Source: an uncultured Gammaproteobacteria bacterium (lineage in GTDB: Bacteria; Pseudomonadota; Gammaproteobacteria; Pseudomonadales; JAHEGP01). From it: a stretch of DNA of 64,000 nt. Made by a program: the position numbers and the translations under genes. Within the stretch, counting starts at the first letter, position 1, and every line of letters begins with the position of its first letter. The notes under the pieces were generated by a model. That model did not search any database and was not told the DNA's origin. It saw only the letters and a program-made list of their open reading frames with translations. Where the stretch lies: positions 66,147 to 130,146 of the forward strand of contig CAWEHR010000009.1 of the NCBI GenBank assembly GCA_963808975.1, written 5' to 3'. Of this stretch, positions 4,017 to 48,199 are shown in pieces.

Positions 4017-4202
4017 TCAATTTGGAGTGATCAGAAACGCACTGCTTGGCTGGAGGTGATCGCCTTCAGCGACATCCGTGCGTTGGTTGCCCAGTTGCGG
4101 ATCTTCGGCTAACCAGCCAAAGCGTTTTTCGAGTGCTTTCAGATAAGTATTATGTTTTCGTTTACCCCATTGGCGCTCTGTAAAGCGGCCGATGTTTTCA
4201 AA
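4017..4202 (-). pseudogene. ParE/RelE-family toxin remnant (no start codon, N-terminus missing)
   Basis: Open stretch 'FENIGRFTERQWGKRKHNTYLKALEKRFGWLAEDPQLGNQRTDVAEGDH..' matches the ParE pattern (WG....Y...L...F..LAE.P.LG..R.D). It is bounded upstream by TAA and has no Met. Confidence 0.45.
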
Positions 4203-4280
4203 TTATGCCGAGCCCCGGGGTTGACTCTGAATCTGGACATCGGGCTTCGTTATCCAGATCGCTGATGAGAGTGTGATGTT

Positions 4281-6803
4281 CTATGTCTTGCGTCCCATTT
4301 GGATCGCCGCCGCCTCGGCTTCGGCAGCATCGGCACTTTTGATGAGCGCTTCAGCCTCTTCGGTGAGTTCCTCGGCAAGCAAAGCCTTTGCGGCCCGGCG
4401 TTTCCTGGCCGCGAGCATGCTCAGATTTTCGATGCGCGCGAGCTGCTCTGCGGTTAACCGCGGCGGAGCAGACTGACCGTCAACGGGCAATAAAGGCCGC
4501 GTGGCCCGTTTATGGATGCTGATCATCCCGGCGCCGGCAAGCTGCTCGAGTGCGTGCCAGGTCGAGGTGTCGAGAACCTGTAGTGTCGGCCTGTCGCCTC
4601 GCCAGTCAGTTTCCTCGAATAGCGCCTCGACGCGGGCACGTTCGGCGACGTTATTCAGCACAGCCATGATCACCGGCGTCGGTGAGCCGGGCACCCAGGT
4701 CTCATCGCATTGGGTGAGATGTTCGCCCAGTACTGCTTTGGCTCGGGTCGCGAAATGCACAGCGGGATCTGCCGGTGGGGGCGTTGCGGCTGTGCTTTGC
4801 GTTGGCACGACCGCCATGACCTGCTCGAGACGCTTGAGGAATGCCTGGCGGCCGCTCCGGAGTGTCATTTTGGTAAGATCGCCCGTGCCATCGAGAACGC
4901 CCTGGGCGAGCTCCATTTTTTGTGACAGGGAGGCCAGCATACCGTGCTCGATCGTGCCCTCGGCAACCAGATTGACGACCGTAACCGGGTTCAGCTGGTT
5001 CTTGCGCCAAGCGCGCGCGATCCGCTGTTCGAGCTTGGCCGGGTTCCAGGGCAAGTCACAATTGATGACGACGCTGGCATTCTGCAGGTTGAGCCCGACG
5101 CCCCCCGAGTCGGTGCTGAGGAACAACCGGCAGTCTGGATCCTGACGGAAGGCGAGGATCTCTGCGCGACGTTGTTTCTGCGGGACTGAGCCGGTGTGCC
5201 AGGCATAACCGATGCGGTGTTTGTCCGCCCATTCCCGCACTCGATCGAGCATGCCGACCCACTCCGAAAAAACGATAACTTTGACGTCGCTGTCCTCCAG
5301 ACACTCTTCCAGAACTCGGGCAAGTTCGTCGAGTTTCGGGCAGTCGCGTGAGGGGTTGTCTTTCATGATCCCCGGTGAGTCGCAGATCATTCGCAGCATG
5401 TTCAGCAGAACCATCAGCAGGTCCTGCTCCTTCGAGGTAAGAGCGCGTCGTTTTGATCGCGCCATCAGGTCGGCAACCTGCCTGTTAAGTGCGGCATATT
5501 CATCGCGCATTGCCTGCGTGAGCTTGACCAGGTGTGTACGGTCCGTGCGGTCTGGGAGCTCGGTCTCGACATCCGCCTTGCGGCGGCGAAGCATTATTGG
5601 ACGTACGCTTTCACGCAGTTTATCGAGGTTCTTGTAACCCGCTGGACGGCCGCGCTCGTCCAGCTCGTAATACTCGCGATTGAAGCGGAACAGCGGACCC
5701 AGGATAGCAGGGTCGAGAAAATCGACAATCGAGCGCAATTCGTCGATCCGATTTTCAAGCGGCGTGCCGGTCAGCACGAAAGCGTAGCGGCTTTCCAGCC
5801 GCTTGACCGCCTGAGCGGTCTTGGTAGACCAGTTCTTGATCCGCTGGGCTTCATCGAGCACGACGATGTCCGGACGCAGCCGCGCATTGATGTCGAGACT
5901 GTCGGCAAGAATCTGTTCGTAGTTCGAAACTGTAAAGAACGGCGGATCCGGTTCGGCATAGATCCTTGCTCGCCGCGCGCGCCCACCGAATACCAGACGC
6001 AGCGGCAGGTCAGAGAATCGAAGGATCTGCTCCTCCCATTCAGTCTTTAACGAGGCGGGTGTAACAATCAGCACGCGTCGCGCCTTGCCGAGGTGGCGCA
6101 GGAGCGCGCAGGCTGCAATCGCCTGGATAGTTTTGCCGAGGCCCATCTCGTCGGCCAGCAGCGCGCGTTCGTTGAAGGCAAGGTGCAGCATACCTTCGCG
6201 TTGGTAGGGGAGTAGTGGGCTATGTGTAATCTGTTCCGGTTGCGTGCCATTGGCAACGCCTGCGGTATATTCGCGGCGGCTTATGATGCGGTCTTGCTCG
6301 CGGCCTCGCATCTCAATCCACGGCGGAACTTCATCTGAAATCCTAATAGATCGGCTACGCGAGGCCCTGAATTCCTCGAGCAGTTCTTCAGCACTCAGGC
6401 CATTTACCTGGAGTCCGCTGCTGTCGAAACGTGCGCGCAGTCGGGGCGGCAGTTTCCCGATGTTGCGCTCCACACGCAGGCGGCCAGCCGGAAAGTCCGG
6501 CACGATGTCCACTCGCTTCGACGAGATGCGCTCGGCGGTTTTGAACTCCTCGCGGTGGCGACGCGCAAGTTGGAGCAGGATCGACTCGATGTGCTTGCAG
6601 GTACCGAGTCCATTGATGCCAAAATCAGTGCAGCTACAGTAGAACTGCCGTGAAGGGAGATCGCGGATCTCGGCGCGATAGGTCATACCACTTGGCGAGC
6701 AGATCTCAAAATTCGAAAAAAATCGGATGTTTGGGCTCAAGATTGGTGATCCGGTGACGCTCTTCCCTCGCACGGAGTTTGCGCTTCGCAAGTTCATGCT
6801 CAT
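4281..6803 (-). CDS. SNF2-family helicase with N-terminal SWIM zinc finger (main frame; see frameshift note)
   Basis: SWIM 'CSCTDFGINGLGTCKHIESI'; motif I 'LADEMGLGKTIQAIA'; motif II 'DEAQRIKN'; helicase-C 'DSGGVGLNLQNASVVINCDLPWNPAKLEQRIARAWR'. The first ~29 codons of the track ORF look non-coding. Confidence 0.85.
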   Translation of the reverse strand: MSMNLRSANSVRGKSVTGSPILSPNIRFFSNFEICSPSGMTYRAEIRDLPSRQFYCSCTDFGINGLGTCKHIESILLQLARRHREEFKTAERISSKRVDIVPDFPAGRLRVERNIGKLPPRLRARFDSSGLQVNGLSAEELLEEFRASRSRSIRISDEVPPWIEMRGREQDRIISRREYTAGVANGTQPEQITHSPLLPYQREGMLHLAFNERALLADEMGLGKTIQAIAACALLRHLGKARRVLIVTPASLKTEWEEQILRFSDLPLRLVFGGRARRARIYAEPDPPFFTVSNYEQILADSLDINARLRPDIVVLDEAQRIKNWSTKTAQAVKRLESRYAFVLTGTPLENRIDELRSIVDFLDPAILGPLFRFNREYYELDERGRPAGYKNLDKLRESVRPIMLRRRKADVETELPDRTDRTHLVKLTQAMRDEYAALNRQVADLMARSKRRALTSKEQDLLMVLLNMLRMICDSPGIMKDNPSRDCPKLDELARVLEECLEDSDVKVIVFSEWVGMLDRVREWADKHRIGYAWHTGSVPQKQRRAEILAFRQDPDCRLFLSTDSGGVGLNLQNASVVINCDLPWNPAKLEQRIARAWRKNQLNPVTVVNLVAEGTIEHGMLASLSQKMELAQGVLDGTGDLTKMTLRSGRQAFLKRLEQVMAVVPTQSTAATPPPADPAVHFATRAKAVLGEHLTQCDETWVPGSPTPVIMAVLNNVAERARVEALFEETDWRGDRPTLQVLDTSTWHALEQLAGAGMISIHKRATRPLLPVDGQSAPPRLTAEQLARIENLSMLAARKRRAAKALLAEELTEEAEALIKSADAAEAEAAAIQMGRKT

Positions 6804-18930: not shown

Positions 18931-19076
18931 CGTCGGAGTGAGCATGTGCGCAAAATCGACGCGAGATCAAGTGGTGTCCAGGCAAACAGCAGTGGGGACA
19001 TTCTGTACCCGGGTGAAAAACTCGCGAGCTCTTTTTCTGCATGGGCCAGATAAATAAATTGGCGTGTGCTGGTGCA

Positions 19077-19316
19077 TTATTCGGGCCGGTTCAGCAGGGC
19101 CTTGATCTCATCCGTGCTGGAAACCTTGCCCTCAATAACGATATCACCGTCGATCGCCAACGCCGGTGTGCGCATCACGCCCGCGTCGATAATCGCATTG
19201 GTATCAGTGATTTTTTCTACTTCGCAACTTTTGCCCAGCGCTTGAGCCGCGCACTGTGCATTGGCGGTGAGTCGCTTGCACTTGGCGCAGCCGCTGCCGT
19301 AAATAGTGAATTTCAT
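19077..19316 (-). CDS. thioredoxin-fold small redox protein (TM0996/MTH895-like)
   Basis: 79 aa. '[10 protein letters not shown]' CxxC and '[15 protein letters not shown]'. This type is typically found next to a COG0701 permease. Confidence 0.8.
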
Positions 19317-19340
19317 TGACTTGTCCTCACTGTTTCCTGT

Positions 19341-20660
19341 TCAAATCCAATTGCCGTAGACGAAGCCCGTGGTGGTGGCCATCACAACTACCAGGCCACT
19401 GTAAACGACGGTTTTTTGGGTGCCGAGAATCGTACGAATTACCAGCATATTGGGTAGGGACAACGCGGGACCTGCCAACAACAATGCCAGCGCCGGGCCT
19501 TTGCCCATCCCGGCCCCCATCAGCGCTTCCACGATGGGGACTTCGGTAAGCGTTGAAAAATACATCAGTGCGCCCATTACCGATGCAATGACGGTGGAAG
19601 ACAATGAGTTGTCTCCCACGGCTGCCGATACCCACTCGGAGGGGATGAGCCCTTCATGCCCGGGACGACCGAGGGCCAGACCGGCGATAAACACCCCACC
19701 CAACAGCAGCGGTAGAATTTGTTTGGCAAAATCCCAACTCTGCGCTGCCCATTCCTGGTCCTGCTCGCGGGTCATGGCAACGATCATCAGCCCAGCAATC
19801 CCCAGGGCAAAGGGCAGTTCGGGATGTCCGGGAGCCATTAACATCGCGGCAACCAATACCGCCGCCAACAGGCCAAGCTGGACTGGTGACCATTGCCAGC
19901 GCCAGATCAGTAGCAGCCCCAATGTCGTGCTCAATGCAGCGGTAATGGGCCACTTCCAGCTAAACACCGCCAGCCACCAGCCAGCATCGGCGGGAGCCCA
20001 GTTGGCAAATACCAGGATGGCGACCATGAGCCCAAAAAAAATGATCAGTAGCGCCGGTGACTTTTCCTGGCCTTCGGCCTCGAATCCCCGGCTAGTGGTA
20101 GCTGAGCGGGCCGCTTCTTCCCTGCGGTACAGGAAATGCATTAGCAGGCCGATCACCACCGAAAATACAATCGCGCCGATCCCGCGGGCGATACCAATTT
20201 CCGCCCCCAGTACCTTGGCGGTGATAACAATCGCCATGATATTGATCGCCGGGCCGGAATAGAGAAAAGCAATGGCTGCTCCCAATCCGGCACCGCGCTT
20301 GTAGATACCGCCAAACAAGGGCAATACTGTGCAGGAACAGACCGCCAGCAGAGTGCCCGAGACAGAGGCCACGCCCAGGGCGATAGGCTTGGGAGCGGTG
20401 GGCCCAAGATAACGCATAACTGAACCCTGACTGATGTATGTCGCCATCGCGCCGGCTATCAAAAAAGCCGGTAGCAAACACAATATGACATGTTCGCGGG
20501 CATACCAGTTGGTGAGCCGCAAGCCTTCCAGTATGGCATTTTCAAACCGTCCATTGCCGACCGGCATAAAATAAATGGCGAGGAACACAGCCAGTATGAG
20601 GGCCAGTAGCTTTGCCCGCTGAGGGTTTTCCTGATAGAGCACTTGTAGACGAGTATGCAT
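19341..20660 (-). CDS. COG0701/DUF318 permease (ArsP-family)
   Basis: 439-aa polytopic protein with the signature 'LLAVCSCTVLPLFGG'. Confidence 0.8.
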   Translation of the reverse strand: MHTRLQVLYQENPQRAKLLALILAVFLAIYFMPVGNGRFENAILEGLRLTNWYAREHVILCLLPAFLIAGAMATYISQGSVMRYLGPTAPKPIALGVASVSGTLLAVCSCTVLPLFGGIYKRGAGLGAAIAFLYSGPAINIMAIVITAKVLGAEIGIARGIGAIVFSVVIGLLMHFLYRREEAARSATTSRGFEAEGQEKSPALLIIFFGLMVAILVFANWAPADAGWWLAVFSWKWPITAALSTTLGLLLIWRWQWSPVQLGLLAAVLVAAMLMAPGHPELPFALGIAGLMIVAMTREQDQEWAAQSWDFAKQILPLLLGGVFIAGLALGRPGHEGLIPSEWVSAAVGDNSLSSTVIASVMGALMYFSTLTEVPIVEALMGAGMGKGPALALLLAGPALSLPNMLVIRTILGTQKTVVYSGLVVVMATTTGFVYGNWI

Positions 20661-20691
20661 GGTAAATTCGTTACATCGCGAATATATTCTT

Positions 20692-20992
20692 GGGCAACTC
20701 TGATCAATTCGGTAATGCTTCAGCGGAGCCTCTGGCGTTCATTGGCAAGGCGCGCCGCGAAGGTCAAGGCTGGTTGTCCTTGACGAGTGGTGCAAGCGGA
20801 TGGCCGCCCCCTTGTCCAATGGGCGCCAGAGGCCCGCCCTGCGGGGCTTCGCTTAGAGCGCCTACTGTTGGTGCGTCGCGTTCGTCTACTGCGTTACAGC
20901 CGTTTGGAAGGCAACCAGCCTTCCTGTACGACTGCGCCTTGTGGACAAACGCGACGCAAGGCCTGAAGCGTCACCGAATTAATCAGAGGTGC
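20692..20992. mobile_element. 301-bp MITE-like repeat, copy 1 (the repeat is certain; mobility is inferred)
   Basis: 299/301 identical to 47719-48019 (differences at 20907 and 20927). The termini are imperfect inverted repeats with 26 of 31 positions matching (GCAACTCTGATCAATTCGGTAATGCTTCAGC vs the reverse complement of the 3' end). Nested internal inverted repeats are present and there is no credible ORF. Confidence 0.6.
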
Positions 20993-21048
20993 CCTTGATA
21001 TGTTTTTTTAACGCATCTCCAGTATCGCCATTCGGTCGCAGGTGATTT

Positions 21049-21393
21049 TTAGCAACACGACTTTATTCTCTGGGGTCTGTCACCCATGGCAGCCAGCCTT
21101 TTTCGGTTGCCGTCCACAAAGGCGTTGTTGGCTTTGGCACTGGTCGCCAGTACCTGTTTGGCCCATGCCGGCAGCGCCGGATTAATCCTGTAAAAAACCC
21201 ATTGCCCCTGGCGACGATCGATCAGTAGCTCGCACTTCCTCAATTGGGCAAGGTGGCGTGATACCTTGGGCTGGATTTCCTCCAGGGCTTCGGTCAGTTC
21301 GCATACGCACAGTTCCTTCTCCTGCTCAATCAACAGCAGGCAGCGCAATCGTGTTTCATCGCTTAGGCATTTGTAGAATTGCACGGGATTCAT
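21049..21393 (-). CDS. arsR: ArsR/SmtB-family metalloregulator
   Basis: From 'MNPVQFYKCLSDETRLRCLLLI', with 'ELCVCELTEAL' (CVC As(III) site context), wHTH 'VSRHLAQLRKCELL' and a C-terminal 'SCC'. The track ORF extends to 21582, but I consider that 5' extension spurious. Confidence 0.85.
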   Translation of the reverse strand: MNPVQFYKCLSDETRLRCLLLIEQEKELCVCELTEALEEIQPKVSRHLAQLRKCELLIDRRQGQWVFYRINPALPAWAKQVLATSAKANNAFVDGNRKRLAAMGDRPQRIKSCC

Positions 21394-21549
21394 GAGCAGG
21401 ACGTACTCTCCTGGGTTTTCGTGAGCGCAAACGCCTGAATAGAAGACGCCACGGCGAGGCGGGCGAATCGCCCTGTGCATACCAATAGAGCGGAGCGCCT
21501 CATCATTGTCCTTCCTGGGCTGTCCCCTATGGTCATATCGGGCATTATT

Positions 21550-21577
21550 ACATATATACATAAAACCGTATATATGT
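21550..21577. promoter_or_regulatory. AT-rich perfect inverted repeat, candidate ArsR operator/promoter
   Basis: ACATATATAC (21550-21559), 8 nt, then GTATATATGT (21568-21577), upstream of arsR in an otherwise GC-rich context. Confidence 0.35.
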
Positions 21578-22341
21578 TTCATCGTATATTAAACGAGTGC
21601 CCTGGTGACCCAGGCGCTGTGGTTGCAGCGTGTGTTTAATCGAACTGCGTGCGATCGAGGAGTGCCCTGGTGTGGTGTCACAGTCACTGTAACTGCCGAT
21701 AGATCGGATCGCGCATCGAATGCCCGGTGATGATTGAGGTTATCCGGTGTGCCGGCCCCGTCTGGCCTGTGGTTCAATTCAGGGGAACCACCTGAGAGTA
21801 ATCGCCGCTACCGGGCCGTCGAGGTTCAAGTCGGCTGCGATCTCGCTGGCGGGAGGGCCATAGTGGAGATAGCGCCATGGGGCGATTACATCTCACTAGC
21901 CGAACTGATAACCGCCCCCCGGTTATTACAACCCTGCCAAAGAGGGCGTGCAACTATCGTGACAGATGGGTGCGACCGCCGTTCTGTGATTAGAGGTCGA
22001 ATTGGCGTCCAGCCAACGTGGACTTCAAGAAGAAGCGCGTTTATTCTTCTTACTACCCCAACGTGTCTGGTGTGCCGATGCCAGCTAGAATACGAAGAAA
22101 GCTTTCGACCTTTTCCGCGGGCCATCCCAGCCGTAGTGTTTGAAGGATCCGAAGCCCAGTTCGGCGCCTAACCGGTTGGGGAGGTGATTCCACCATTTAG
22201 CGGTATAGCGAGAAAGTATCCATTAGAACTAATGCCGTCTAACGAAATGATTAAGTGTGCGTTATGGATAATCTTACGGGGGTGGCCCTATGTTTGGAGT
22301 TGAATCCAAATATGTTCGCATAATTCGAAAAGTTTATATTT

Positions 22342-44952: not shown

Positions 44953-46223
44953 GGGTTTTGGCTACAGCTGCGCCACTCCAGCCTGTTGTACAATCGGTTA
45001 CCAGGCTGCTGGTATCCTACGGGCTATGCCTCGCCCTGCTGGGCTGTGCAAGCTTGCAGCCTCCGCTTGAAATTGATGAAACCCCACTGCGCGAACGCGC
45101 AGAAACCCAAACGGTCGGCAACGTCCAGGTCAACGCTGCTGTGCTCAGTGCCGAGGACAGCCAGAACTTTTTCGGCGCCGACCTCAGCGCTAACGGCGTC
45201 CAGGCTGTGTGGCTGGAAATTGTCAATCACTCATCCCATTCACTGCGGCTACTGCGGTCCGGAACCGACCCTGACTATTTTTCTCCGCTGGAGGTCGCCT
45301 GGTCTTACCATGGTGCGCTGTCCGGTGATGCCAACCGTAAAATTGATGAGCATTTTCGCTATGCAAGCATTGACGGTGTTATCCCGCCCGGCGAGACTCG
45401 CAGCGGCTTTCTGTATGTTAATCCGCATCATCGCACCCAGGTAATCAATATCGACCTGCTGGGTCAAAAAACAAACTTCCCTTTCACCTTGTTCCTTCAA
45501 GTGCCGGGTGAACAGGACGACCACAATTTTGACGGAATCTGGGATCAGATGCTGCGCGCACAGGGCAATGAATACCAGGATGAATTGGCGTTCCGCCAGG
45601 CACTTGAGCAATTGCCAGCCAGTACCAGCGTGGCCCAGGGCGCAGCCGAGTCGGGCCCGCTAAATGTGGTTCTCATCGGTAAGCTTGCGGATATCGCCGC
45701 CGCACTGATTCGTCGTGAGTATCGTCACGCGCCAACGCCAGCGGACGCGGCACAGCAGGTATTCGGCCGGCCACCGGACTTCGTTTCTCGCAAGGCGGGA
45801 CAAGGCGGAGTAACCGCCAACTGGATGCGGATATGGGTGGCGCCACTTTACTACCAGGGCCAAACCGTATTTGTTGGCCAGGCCGGGCGCCCGGTGGGTG
45901 GTCGCTTCATGGCAACCGATGACGCGGCACCGCGGCTGCATCCGGACGTCGATGAAGCGCGAGCTTACGTCATCCAGGACCTGCTGTATTCCGGGGGACT
46001 CGCGAAACTGGGCTTTGTCGGGGGTGTGAATGCGGTGAGCGCTGAACAACACCGCAATCAGCCCGAAGAGCTCAACTACCATAGCGATGGTTTGCGGGCG
46101 GTGCTGTTTTTTGTCACCCGGCCCCTGTCGCTGGCGGATGTAGAAATTCTTGATTGGGTGCCGGCCCTTGAAGTCCAGGCTGCCGCGGCAGCTAAAAGGA
46201 ATGCGCATCAAAATGCCGATTAA
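44949..46223 (+). CDS. lipoprotein with LssY-like C-terminal domain (paralogue)
   Basis: ATGA overlap with the upstream gene. Lipobox 'LALLGC'. 'GPLNVVLIGKLADIAAALIRREY' and 'WMRIWVAPLYYQGQTVFVGQAGRPVG'. Confidence 0.65.
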   Translation: MRVLATAAPLQPVVQSVTRLLVSYGLCLALLGCASLQPPLEIDETPLRERAETQTVGNVQVNAAVLSAEDSQNFFGADLSANGVQAVWLEIVNHSSHSLRLLRSGTDPDYFSPLEVAWSYHGALSGDANRKIDEHFRYASIDGVIPPGETRSGFLYVNPHHRTQVINIDLLGQKTNFPFTLFLQVPGEQDDHNFDGIWDQMLRAQGNEYQDELAFRQALEQLPASTSVAQGAAESGPLNVVLIGKLADIAAALIRREYRHAPTPADAAQQVFGRPPDFVSRKAGQGGVTANWMRIWVAPLYYQGQTVFVGQAGRPVGGRFMATDDAAPRLHPDVDEARAYVIQDLLYSGGLAKLGFVGGVNAVSAEQHRNQPEELNYHSDGLRAVLFFVTRPLSLADVEILDWVPALEVQAAAAAKRNAHQNAD

Positions 46224-47352
46224 CCGCATTGGAAATCAACACGGCAGGGGGTCACTCCGGGCAGTGAGCTGCCAGTGGGCGGCCCGGTACCTGCCTGCTA
46301 TCGCTGCAATTCTGATTATGGGCGGCTGTGCATCCAAACCGTTGATGCCCTATACCACCGACACCATTCCCCTGTTACTCGCGCCCGCCATAGTGAGTGA
46401 CGAGCAGGACAAGCGAGGACGCTTCCGGGAAGTATTCTGTGCGGTGCTCGAAGCCCGCAAAGACAGCGTGCCTGACTACCGCTCCTGTAACGAAGCGCTA
46501 ACAACGGTTGGCAAAGAGCCCCCCGGTACTGGCAATGAAATTAACCTGGGCGAGTCGCAACAACCCCGACTGGCCCTGTTCGTGGGCGGTGTTGGCTGGG
46601 ACTGTTTCTCTGAGTGGCTGGAGTTGCAGAATACGGTGCAGAAGCATATCAGCCAGTTTGGCTTTGATGCCTCCATGCTGTCCGTCGACAGCCTTGCCAG
46701 CAGCAGGAATAACAGTCGACAGATCCGCGATGCGATCCTGGCAATGCCCCGGGAGAGCGGGCTGCCTGACCTGATCCTCATTGGCTATTCCAAGGGGGCA
46801 ACCGATATTCTCGAGGCAGTCGTCAGCTACCCGGAGATTCATGAGCGGATTGCCGCCGTGGTCAGCATTGCCGGGTCGGTGGGAGGTTCGCCGCTGGCAA
46901 ACGATGCCAGCCAGTCGCAGCTCAACCTGCTACAGCATTTTCCGGGAGCAACATGCAAACCAAGCGATGAAGGCGCCCTCGACAGCATGCGACCGTCGAT
47001 GCGCAAGGCCTGGCTTGCGGAAAACCCCCTGCCTGAGCAAATTCCCTATTACTCGCTGATCACCTTCCCCGACCCCGCAGAAATTTCGTCACTGCTGCGC
47101 AGCTTTTACAAGAAGCTGGGCAAAGTGGATGCCCGTAACGATGGCCAGGTCATTTTCTATGACCAGTTCATCCCGGGCAGTACCCTGGTGGGGTATCTCA
47201 ACGCGGATCATTGGGCGCCGGCAGTGCCGATTGCACGCGCCCACGGCATTGTCGGCAGGCTGTTCGTCGACGAGAATGACTACCCGCGTGAGGCGCTGCT
47301 CGAAGCATTGCTGCGCTTTCTCGAAGAAGACCTGCGGCGTACAGAAAACTGA
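46201..47352 (+). CDS. lipoprotein alpha/beta-hydrolase (lipase-like)
   Basis: ATG 46201 overlaps the previous gene by 23 nt. Lipobox 'ILIMGGC'. Nucleophile elbow '[10 protein letters not shown]'. Confidence 0.6.
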
Positions 47353-47404
47353 CGCCGGTTGAATTCGGACCAGGTATCGAGAGCGCAAGGCACATCTGAT
47401 CACG

Positions 47405-47718
47405 CCGTTTGTTCGACAATTCACTTGCCACAATGCGCTTTAGGTCAGCCCAAGCCTCTGTGCTCATAGGCTTGTTGTCGTTGGTCGATTGCCCGGTTGT
47501 CCACCAGGTGTGCTCGCGGCTGGTATCGTCCAGCACAATGAATTTGTCTTTTGGGGAGCGGCCGGTGAATTCCCCCGTCCTGACGGCGACCGCGCCGAAC
47601 TCGGTGACCACGCCGCGTTCGAAACCCTGCAGCTCGGGGCTGGTCTCCTCTTTGAAGAGTGTTTCGTACGAGGGGTTGTAAATAATCTCGGTGGTATCAC
47701 TGATGCCGTATTGACCTA
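47405..47718 (-). pseudogene. pckA: phosphoenolpyruvate carboxykinase (ATP) fragment, ~residues 10-115 only
   Basis: '[58 protein letters not shown]' aligns with the N-terminal region of E. coli PckA. Homology stops after 'SELSNKR'. The 5' end abuts the 301-bp repeat. Confidence 0.8.
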
Positions 47719-48019
47719 GGGCAACTCTGATCAATTCGGTAATGCTTCAGCGGAGCCTCTGGCGTTCATTGGCAAGGCGCGCCGCGAAGGTCAAGGCTGG
47801 TTGTCCTTGACGAGTGGTGCAAGCGGATGGCCGCCCCCTTGTCCAATGGGCGCCAGAGGCCCGCCCTGCGGGGCTTCGCTTAGAGCGCCTACTGTTGGTG
47901 CGTCGCGTTCGTCTACTGCGTTACAGCCGTTTGAAAGGCAACCAGCCTTCCTGCACGACTGCGCCTTGTGGACAAACGCGACGCAAGGCCTGAAGCGTCA
48001 CCGAATTAATCAGAGGTGC
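47719..48019. mobile_element. 301-bp MITE-like repeat, copy 2
   Basis: Same orientation as 20692-20992 with 2 mismatches. TA lies on both flanks of this copy. Confidence 0.6.
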
Positions 48020-48199
48020 TAGACTGGCCGAGCTGCGCAACGCCAAAGGTGGCGAGCCACTGAATATCGTCATTGTGTTGATCGACGTATCAGTTTTTGG
48101 CTAGATGGGGAGGACCGCGCTGAATGAGTTTACCAGTCGATGCCGACAGGGCTACTCGGCTCCACCGGCACATAATTCATAGTGGCAGGAGGCTTTGGC

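Follow-up and report, generated by a model that had tools for sequence, protein, structure and literature searches.

The closest structural precedent for the repeat described here is bcr1 of the Bacillus cereus group, a mobile repeat of about 155 bp (Delihas 2011, PMC3184786) that is flanked by short direct repeats and has a cruciform-like structure of two stem-loops kept by compensatory changes (PMC3184786). Among insertion sequences, the target duplication motif reported for IS5 is YTAR (PMC10359306), and a 4-bp YTAR duplication has likewise been reported for ISXo1 (bioRxiv 10.1101/2023.04.27.538605). Here we consider a repeat found in the window, by which we mean the whole 64-kb stretch of DNA that was analysed, and we conclude that it belongs to a true MITE family, since it has inverted repeats at its termini (TIRs), a fixed 4-bp duplication, small size, no coding capacity and copies at many unrelated loci. 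This family is widespread in uncultured Gammaproteobacteria and was previously undescribed. Taking all observations together, we hold that it is very probably a non-coding MITE moved by a DDE transposase that makes 4-bp cuts at YTWR targets, and that its interior fold is under selection.

Two copies of one element

The repeat search returned a single family in the window, with two copies of about 300 nt that are 99% identical, lie 27027 bp apart and are both found on the + strand (raw coordinates 20689-20988 and 47716-48015), in full agreement with the initial annotation of a near-identical pair in direct orientation some 27 kb apart. Reading of the sequence together with the family alignment places the element ends at GGCAAC...GGTGCC (Table 1). 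Between these ends the copies differ by two substitutions, at element positions 215 (G/A) and 235 (T/C), and the right tip of copy 2 reads GGTGC-TAG as opposed to the expected GGTGCC-CTAG, meaning that two C residues are missing. The termini match as inverted repeats at 27 of 31 positions; the inverted termini had been recognized before, and the earlier count of 26 of 31 was obtained with slightly different ends. The placement of those ends, one base too far out, is also the reason why no consistent target-site duplication had been discerned, since the flanks of the copies do carry a duplication of 4 bp, and the C-CTTG previously read to the right of copy 1 is the last base of the element followed by the CTTG duplication. 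Outside these 4-bp target sites the flanks of the two copies are unrelated to each other. With the family profile nhmmer found no third copy or fragment in the window, only copies 1 and 2, and the match that it reported on the reverse strand at E=1e-18 reflects the mirror symmetry of the element.

Table 1. Positions in the window of the two MITE copies, their parts and the gene fragments beside copy 2
Feature	Position	Strand	Remarks
Left target-site duplication, copy 1	20689-20692		CTTG
MITE copy 1	20693-20993	+	301 bp, ends GGCAAC...GGTGCC
Left TIR, copy 1	20693-20723	+	27/31 match to the right end; near-invariant in 31 + 18 copies
Left arm of fold, copy 1	20724-20836	+	A2 columns 32-54 / 137-159; encloses two nested hairpins
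Tiny junction hairpin, copy 1	20837-20845	+	3 bp, CCC-UGC-GGG
Right arm of fold, copy 1	20846-20962	+	A2 columns 195-212 / 264-281, inner hairpins, loop CAACCAG
22-bp insertion, window variant	20850-20871 (copy 1), 47877-47898 (copy 2)	+	CGCTTAGAGCGCCTACTGTTGG
Right TIR, copy 1	20963-20993	+	From the sequence and the family alignment
Right target-site duplication, copy 1	20994-20997		CTTG
pckA fragment, codons ~18-122	47405-47719	-	Pfam PEPCK_ATP; PDB PckA alignment, residues 17-122; homology stops at 47405
Left target-site duplication, copy 2	47716-47719		CTAG
MITE copy 2	47720-48019	+	300 bp, direct orientation relative to copy 1; terminal C lost; inserted in pckA codon 18
Remnant of right target-site duplication, copy 2	48020-48022		TAG; GCC-CTAG expected, GC-TAG seen
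pckA start codon and first 17 codons	48023-48073	-	Split off by copy 2; frame restored without the element

One might suppose that segmental duplication or gene conversion left the pair behind, as there are only two copies in the window and these are in direct orientation, but the homology does not extend by a single base beyond the element, the 4-bp duplication of one copy differs from that of the other and the family occupies more than 80 other loci. The chance of this explanation being correct is practically negligible; far from there being only two copies within a larger duplicated segment, dozens are found elsewhere and the flanks are unrelated. The best explanation is instead that a single variant recently gave rise to both window copies as sister insertions.

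The sites of insertion

Copy 1 is found, as first annotated, between arsR (21049-21582, - strand) and the gene for an ArsP permease (19341-20660, - strand), 32 nt upstream of the start codon of the latter. A GAPDH gene lies downstream of the permease, all three genes are on the - strand, and copy 1 is presumably co-transcribed within the ars operon. Without the element the spacer between arsR and arsP is predicted to read ...ATTCTTGATATG..., and as the contig carrying a 91% identical ArsP homologue starts 12 nt before that gene, no empty site could be seen there. The gene order on the - strand from 16504 to 21582 is arsR, the MITE, the ArsP-type permease, GAPDH with an N-terminal extension (436 aa) and an ORF of 406 aa, and this arrangement resembles an operon for arsenate resistance of the GAPDH/ArsJ type in which the MITE separates regulator and permease. 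At the locus of the 91% homologue (L096) a thioredoxin-like gene is found between permease and GAPDH.

Copy 2 is inserted in codon 18 of pckA, which encodes ATP-dependent PEP carboxykinase. Removing the copy and one CTAG restores the open reading frame, alignments to solved PckA structures cover residues 17-122, the junction included, and the uninterrupted gene is predicted to read ...GACCTAGACTGG... at codon 18. pckA is hence a pseudogene that has been damaged twice, being split at codon 18 and truncated after codon 122. The former proposal that copy 2 lies at a rearrangement joint must be modified in this light: copy 2 is a simple insertion, and a joint does exist, about 315 bp away at 47405. 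The stretch 47389-47404, GGCACATCTGATCA, matches the MITE terminus at 13 of 14 positions and is found exactly where the pckA homology breaks; about 0.02 chance matches to such a 14-mer are expected in the window, and the tetranucleotide preceding it is atypical as a target. It could be what is left of a third copy that took part in the pckA deletion, or a coincidence. The neighbouring ORF of 400 aa (46150-47352, + strand) has no Pfam match. With pckA knocked out and a copy sitting in the ars operon, the element is an active mutagen here, and it is plausible that the two copies, being 300 bp long, 99% identical and in direct orientation, could mediate deletion or excision of the intervening 27 kb.

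A family of non-coding mobile repeats

When one genome of each GTDB species was searched for exact matches to the TIR core that the copies share, 38 loci were retrieved, nearly all of them from a single Gammaproteobacteria MAG, MFD03804.bin.1.8, while two further MAGs have one locus each. The former MAG holds about 30 full-length copies that are 83-89% identical to the window copy by blastn and fall into size classes of 279 and 265 bp. A scan of metagenomes with the TIR pattern added 57 loci on contigs from JGI, TARA and other metagenomes, and altogether the family is present at more than 80 loci outside the window, in unrelated contexts, and uncultured Gammaproteobacteria of the sea and of soil commonly carry it. 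The suggestion in the initial annotation of a MITE-like, non-autonomous transposon that has spread recently is thereby borne out, as dozens of copies, all having TIRs and a duplication, occupy loci that are unrelated to one another. It was also correctly noted that the element encodes no credible protein, since no ORF is found in any of the length classes; indels and substitutions in the paired stems break every reading frame. Insertion sites are intergenic except for that of window copy 2, which occupies the pckA remnant, and the orientation of the element is not biased with respect to the genes beside it (13 same, 8 opposite, 9 divergent, 6 convergent). Nothing known matches the element, be it an ncRNA or a gene fragment. 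The TIR sequence gave only unrelated primer matches in full-text literature and no matches in viral contigs, and neither the whole element nor the TIR, the latter at E up to 10, returned anything useful from the plasmid collection.

The TIR is about 31 bp long and begins GGCAMCTCTGATYAATTCGGTRA, and its ends are near-invariant over 49 aligned copies. Nucleotides 27-37 counted from the end, TCAGCGGAGCC, are an inverted near-copy of the terminal 11 nt and constitute an internal pseudo-end. Element sizes span 50-392 bp across the family. In addition there are micro-forms of two kinds, namely 37-bp forms, which stop at the internal pseudo-end, here GGAGCC, and are then followed by a YTAR tetranucleotide, and 50-57-bp forms, which consist of two TIRs alone (L062 652-688, L047, L090, L071, L081, L088; L001 7621-7676, L014 6926-6981, L035, L041/L067, L052). 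Some micro-forms are surrounded by perfect 4-bp duplications (TTAA in L062, CTAG in L001, TTAG in L014), and they may have arisen either by transposition or by deletion in place. Two metagenome contigs were furthermore seen to carry elements of differing length at the same insertion site, 265 bp in L060 (8589-8853) and 180 bp in L074 (9144-9323), and a similar same-site pair, of 377 and 392 bp, occurs among L068, L083 and L069. Such differences show that whole arms or hairpins are deleted or inserted in place.

It should also be mentioned that a stretch of 1.06 kb encoding a calcineurin-like phosphoesterase (13698-14755 of the window) is 90% identical in DNA to positions 158-1216 of L022, a locus of MAG bin.1.8, where it ends 20 bp from a MITE copy. 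This is the lone stretch of more than 350 bp that is common to the window and the 38 genome-scan loci compared, which are mostly from MAG bin.1.8, and it may have been transferred horizontally or be part of a mobile unit.

Target rule and transposase

With the ends set at GGCA...TGCC, direct repeats of 4 bp flank nearly all of the approximately 55 paired copies. CTAG, CTAA, TTAG and TTAA dominate among the duplicated tetranucleotides, the exceptions being CTAT in one copy and CTTG in seven, among which are window copy 1 and copies in L024, L034, L037 and L082. The overall rule is YTWR-like, with CTTG falling outside strict YTAR. Since most junctions can be written TA-RGGCA...TGCCY-TA, and TA had been seen on both sides of copy 2, one could alternatively imagine a MITE of the IS630/Tc1-mariner type that duplicates TA only and whose outer bases belong to the inverted repeat. 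The base outside the TA is however repeated directly and not as the complement (CTAA...CTAA, TTAG...TTAG, CTAT...CTAT), and the seven copies with CTTG...CTTG, including window copy 1, have no TA at all. A duplication of TA only is excluded by these two observations, and an origin from elements of this type is in our opinion exceedingly improbable.

The target rule rather leads us to infer that the family is transposed by a DDE-type transposase acting in trans. Of 16 positions compared, the TIR has 9 in common with the left end of E. coli K-12 IS5, a weak likeness that a random 16-mer equals with p ~0.008 and that is suggestive only; this weakness and the CTTG targets outside strict YTAR both count against the transposon reading. 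IS701-family elements also make 4-bp duplications and are a possible source of the transposase.

A partner transposase with matching TIRs, which had been recommended as a check, was searched for, and no autonomous partner was found among the 95 fetched loci, plasmids or viral contigs. There is no ORF of the DDE_Tnp_1 (IS5-type) next to any end. The ORFs beside solo ends in L017 and L035 encode SurE, an oxaloacetate decarboxylase subunit and an ion channel and no transposase, and on the inner side of the 27 single ends that metagenome loci provided there are only ordinary genes, save for one IS110 transposase inserted in the MITE. Inverted TIR-like pairs 0.6-3.5 kb apart gave only noise and none with a matching 4-bp duplication, and tblastn with IS5 InsH across the fetched loci returned nothing credible; a match in L031 at E=0.39 is inside the 3' end of an IS110-like element and was discarded as spurious. 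The clean 4-bp YTWR target rule provides a handle for finding the transposase of the family.

According to the mechanism that we propose, a DDE-type transposase would bind the TIRs of about 31 bp and make staggered 4-bp cuts at CTAG, CTAA, TTAG, TTAA and CTTG (YTWR-like), and the element would be excised and inserted in trans by cut-and-paste. One of the sister insertions entered the arsR-arsP spacer and the other codon 18 of pckA.

A conserved four-way junction

The long-range inverted repeats previously noticed in the interior of the element are real, and they are the stems of a conserved fold. Near-identical copies from within one MAG show almost no covariation (2 of 99 pairs), and the fold alignment was made of 18 diverged copies, comprising the window, 4 copies from MAGs and 13 from metagenomes, with a mean column identity of 74%. 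For these, RNAalifold gave 103 pairs, 42 of which have two-sided compensatory changes. The shared fold is a four-way junction without unpaired junction bases, formed by the TIR stem (columns 1-31 / 286-316), the left arm (32-54 / 137-159, enclosing 75-81 / 110-116 and 86-93 / 99-107), a 3-bp hairpin (160-168) and the right arm (169-172 / 282-285 and 195-212 / 264-281 with inner helices). Two-sided changes are seen in 11 of 22, 4 of 7 and 4 of 8 pairs of the left-arm helices, and 14 of 17 pairs covary in the main stem of the right arm (helix 8), whose sequence differs from lineage to lineage and is always paired. The left arm has the conserved loop CTGGTTG and the right arm the loop CAACCAG, and GAAG/GA and CUGGUUG recur across copies as conserved loops or internal loops. 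Length variants arise by gain or loss of whole small hairpins at loop positions.

In the folding and covariation analysis that had been called for, the agreement with this fold is above all controls. The observed proportion of paired cells is 96.5%, as compared to 86.4% with the 3' letters shuffled (reached in 0 of 500 shuffles) and 32-39% with partners slid by 1-3 columns, and the covariation score is 0.315 against 0.124 for shuffled and about 0.05 for slid partners. The window copy also folds far better than its shuffles (z = -11.4 and -12.8 for the two strands). Two further features were considered and rejected. The junction hairpin (helix 6) reads CCC-UUC-GGG in most copies, and the lone covarying change in it, a double change from C-G to U-A in L044, fits a 3-bp stem with a triloop and not a UNCG tetraloop. 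Kissing of the arm loops CUGGUUG and CAACCAG has no compensating change to support it, and the simpler account of their complementarity is that the arms are inverted homologues.

We can conclude that the interior fold is maintained by compensatory substitutions and that a single-stranded form, RNA or DNA, is what selection acts upon. Covariation in the TIR stem could reflect one protein reading both ends, but covariation inside each arm is not explained in this way. That copies decay in place, as seen for L060 and L074, furthermore implies that the constraint is not on a host function everywhere; it points to a constraint that acts on the spreading lineages, with a role in propagation or in limiting harm and not a host function at each site.

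Mirror modules and the polarity of wobble pairs

Read on the + strand, the left arm is homologous to the right arm read on the - strand, making the element a pair of mirror-image modules of about 115 nt, in each of which the order is TIR, variable stem, AAGGCGC...AAGGCTGGTTG...GCAACGCAGT and variable stem. This inverted homology accounts for the reverse-strand profile matches and for the complementary loops that were noted initially. When non-Watson-Crick stem cells are counted and collapsed by clade, the left arm has 29 G.U and 3 A.C on the + strand and the TIR stem 14 and 4, whereas the right arm has 8 G.U and 15 A.C, the latter being G.U on the - strand. The arms differ significantly (Fisher p = 2e-5), although the reversed bias of the right arm alone (8:15) is not significant. 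Mutation of double-stranded DNA gives no such asymmetry, so that a single-stranded form must be what is selected, and the arms lean to opposite strands, in each case the one that is read 5' to 3' from the outer end of the arm into the element. The reading we prefer is that a module works on its inward strand and that the element consequently acts alike in either orientation. As a more specific and distinctly tentative proposal, doubtful as it stands, the modules could be folded single strands of RNA or DNA, each read inward, that represent a new motif working in either orientation. If true, they might constitute a portable module for RNA ends or processing or a folded-DNA cofactor for the transposase, the last of which would be unprecedented for a transposon with IS5-like duplications.

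A DDE transposase acting on double-stranded DNA would not obviously require an internal fold, and the transposon model alone leaves the selection on structure unaccounted for. The initial annotation offered a structured RNA spreading as a transposon as an alternative, and strong covariation and strand-specific wobble do lend it some support. In its full form this alternative holds that a structured ncRNA gene or cis-acting RNA module rides on transposon ends and that the fold is its functional product. It is in agreement with extensive compensatory changes in stems that have nothing to do with transposase binding, with a left-arm ratio of G.U to A.C on one strand that requires a single-stranded form, with conserved loops and with hairpins that expand at loop positions as they do in evolving RNAs. 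There is also the precedent of bcr1, which is transcribed and shows compensatory changes (PMC3184786), and copy 1 is situated in an operon. However, neither a sigma-70 promoter nor an intrinsic terminator was found in or near copy 1, which gives no sign of a dedicated transcript. Searches of Rfam (Rfam 15) gave chance-level matches only (E up to 10 for the window copy and up to 5 for ten metagenome loci), and gene orientation is unbiased. In addition, both strands fold equally well, the arms favour opposite strands such that any one transcript would be less than optimal for one of them, individual copies undergo deletion in place, and as G.T wobble is the mildest mismatch in a DNA hairpin, folded single-stranded DNA explains the same data. 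We therefore regard an RNA gene proper as rather unlikely, although it deserves consideration.

The preference for a single-stranded form could also be taken to indicate a palindromic element, REP/REPIN-like or derived from IS200/IS605, that an HUH (Y1) transposase moves as single-stranded DNA, for which both the compensatory conservation of hairpins and the strand-specific wobble would speak. Such elements are however without TIRs at both ends and without target duplication, both of which are consistent features here, and their ends are asymmetric with subterminal hairpins. None of the copies has a tnpA/RAYT-like ORF beside it, and we consider this a very unlikely origin.

Returning to a transposon with a selected fold, the two mirror modules and the paired termini fold into the four-way junction, which has been kept on spreading lineages, and the inward strand of a module would act either as a folded transcript upon read-through from the host or as folded single-stranded DNA that aids mobilization. 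Either RNA or folded single-stranded DNA may be the selected form, as both fit the data. The fold with its 42 covarying pairs and the opposite wobble of its arms make this family a strong and testable case of selection on the single-stranded shape of a DNA transposon.

A target of IS110-family elements

The 301-bp form of the window is the 279-bp form with an insertion of 22 bp, which is present in both window copies and absent from all copies of 279 and 265 bp. Its 12 final nucleotides, GCCTACTGTTGG, are identical to the right end of an IS110-like element in L031, and this 12-mer occurs four times in the 626 kb compared, in all cases at such a junction and followed by TGC. The first 10 nt resemble the left end of the IS110-like element loosely. 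A similar 22-mer is carried by the MITE of L007 at the mirror position.

Elements of this kind are found within other copies of the MITE. In one MAG copy, spread over L007 and L031 of the same contig CAVROQ010000007.1, an element with a gene for an IS110-family transposase (L007 6673-8000 with L031 1-380) interrupts the loop of the right arm, GGCTGGT^TGCC, an unrelated metagenome copy in L065 (561-1577) is split at the same point (Pfam DEDD_Tnp_IS110 and Transposase_20), and L004 (~4100-4611) has a different insertion at that point of the MITE. It seems that the MITE is a preferred multi-copy target of IS110-family elements, which are of the bridge-RNA type, and the 22-bp stretch is, from its junction sequence, probably an IS110-family relic. 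On the simplest reading, an ancestral copy would have received an IS110-like element at a secondary site, GGCTT^TGCG, and all but 22 bp of that element would later have been deleted, whereupon the MITE marked in this manner would have transposed to give the two window copies. The family may hence be a natural multi-copy target for studying IS110 targeting.

Comparison with known systems

In its workings the family is like a MITE of the IS5 type. The IS5 group (IS5, ISXo1) has in common with the family a 4-bp duplication of the YTAR type (CTAG, CTAA, TTAG, TTAA), termini that start with GG, a loose likeness of the TIR (GG.A..T..GA.TAA, 9/16) and a cut-and-paste mode that clean junctions lead one to expect. 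It differs in that no IS5-type transposase was found between ends of the family, and in that the family also uses CTTG targets, has a TIR of about 31-37 bp, which is about twice that of IS5, and has an internal inverted pseudo-end, and in that the interior of the family is a fold and not leftover IS ends. The structural precedent, bcr1, is likewise a non-autonomous mobile repeat with short direct-repeat flanks and a structure kept by compensatory changes, but it belongs to Firmicutes, makes duplications of 5 bp and not 4 bp, has no sequence similarity to the family, is about half the size and is known to be transcribed.

Correia/NEMIS of Neisseria and ERIC of enterobacteria are also small intergenic repeats bounded by TIRs that fold into long hairpins when co-transcribed, and they too can alter expression or disrupt genes. 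They differ by a TA duplication (Correia) or none that is clear, by a size of 100-160 bp, by a single hairpin and by IHF or promoter boxes, whereas the present family forms a four-way junction with two mirror modules and not one hairpin. REPINs share the many intergenic copies and hairpins preserved by compensatory changes on spreading lineages, but they neither duplicate their target nor possess long TIRs, they measure about 100 nt, and their spread is linked to a Y1 transposase gene present in single copy. The family is accordingly neither IS630-like nor REP/REPIN-like, but an element of an ordinary kind that is unusually well structured.
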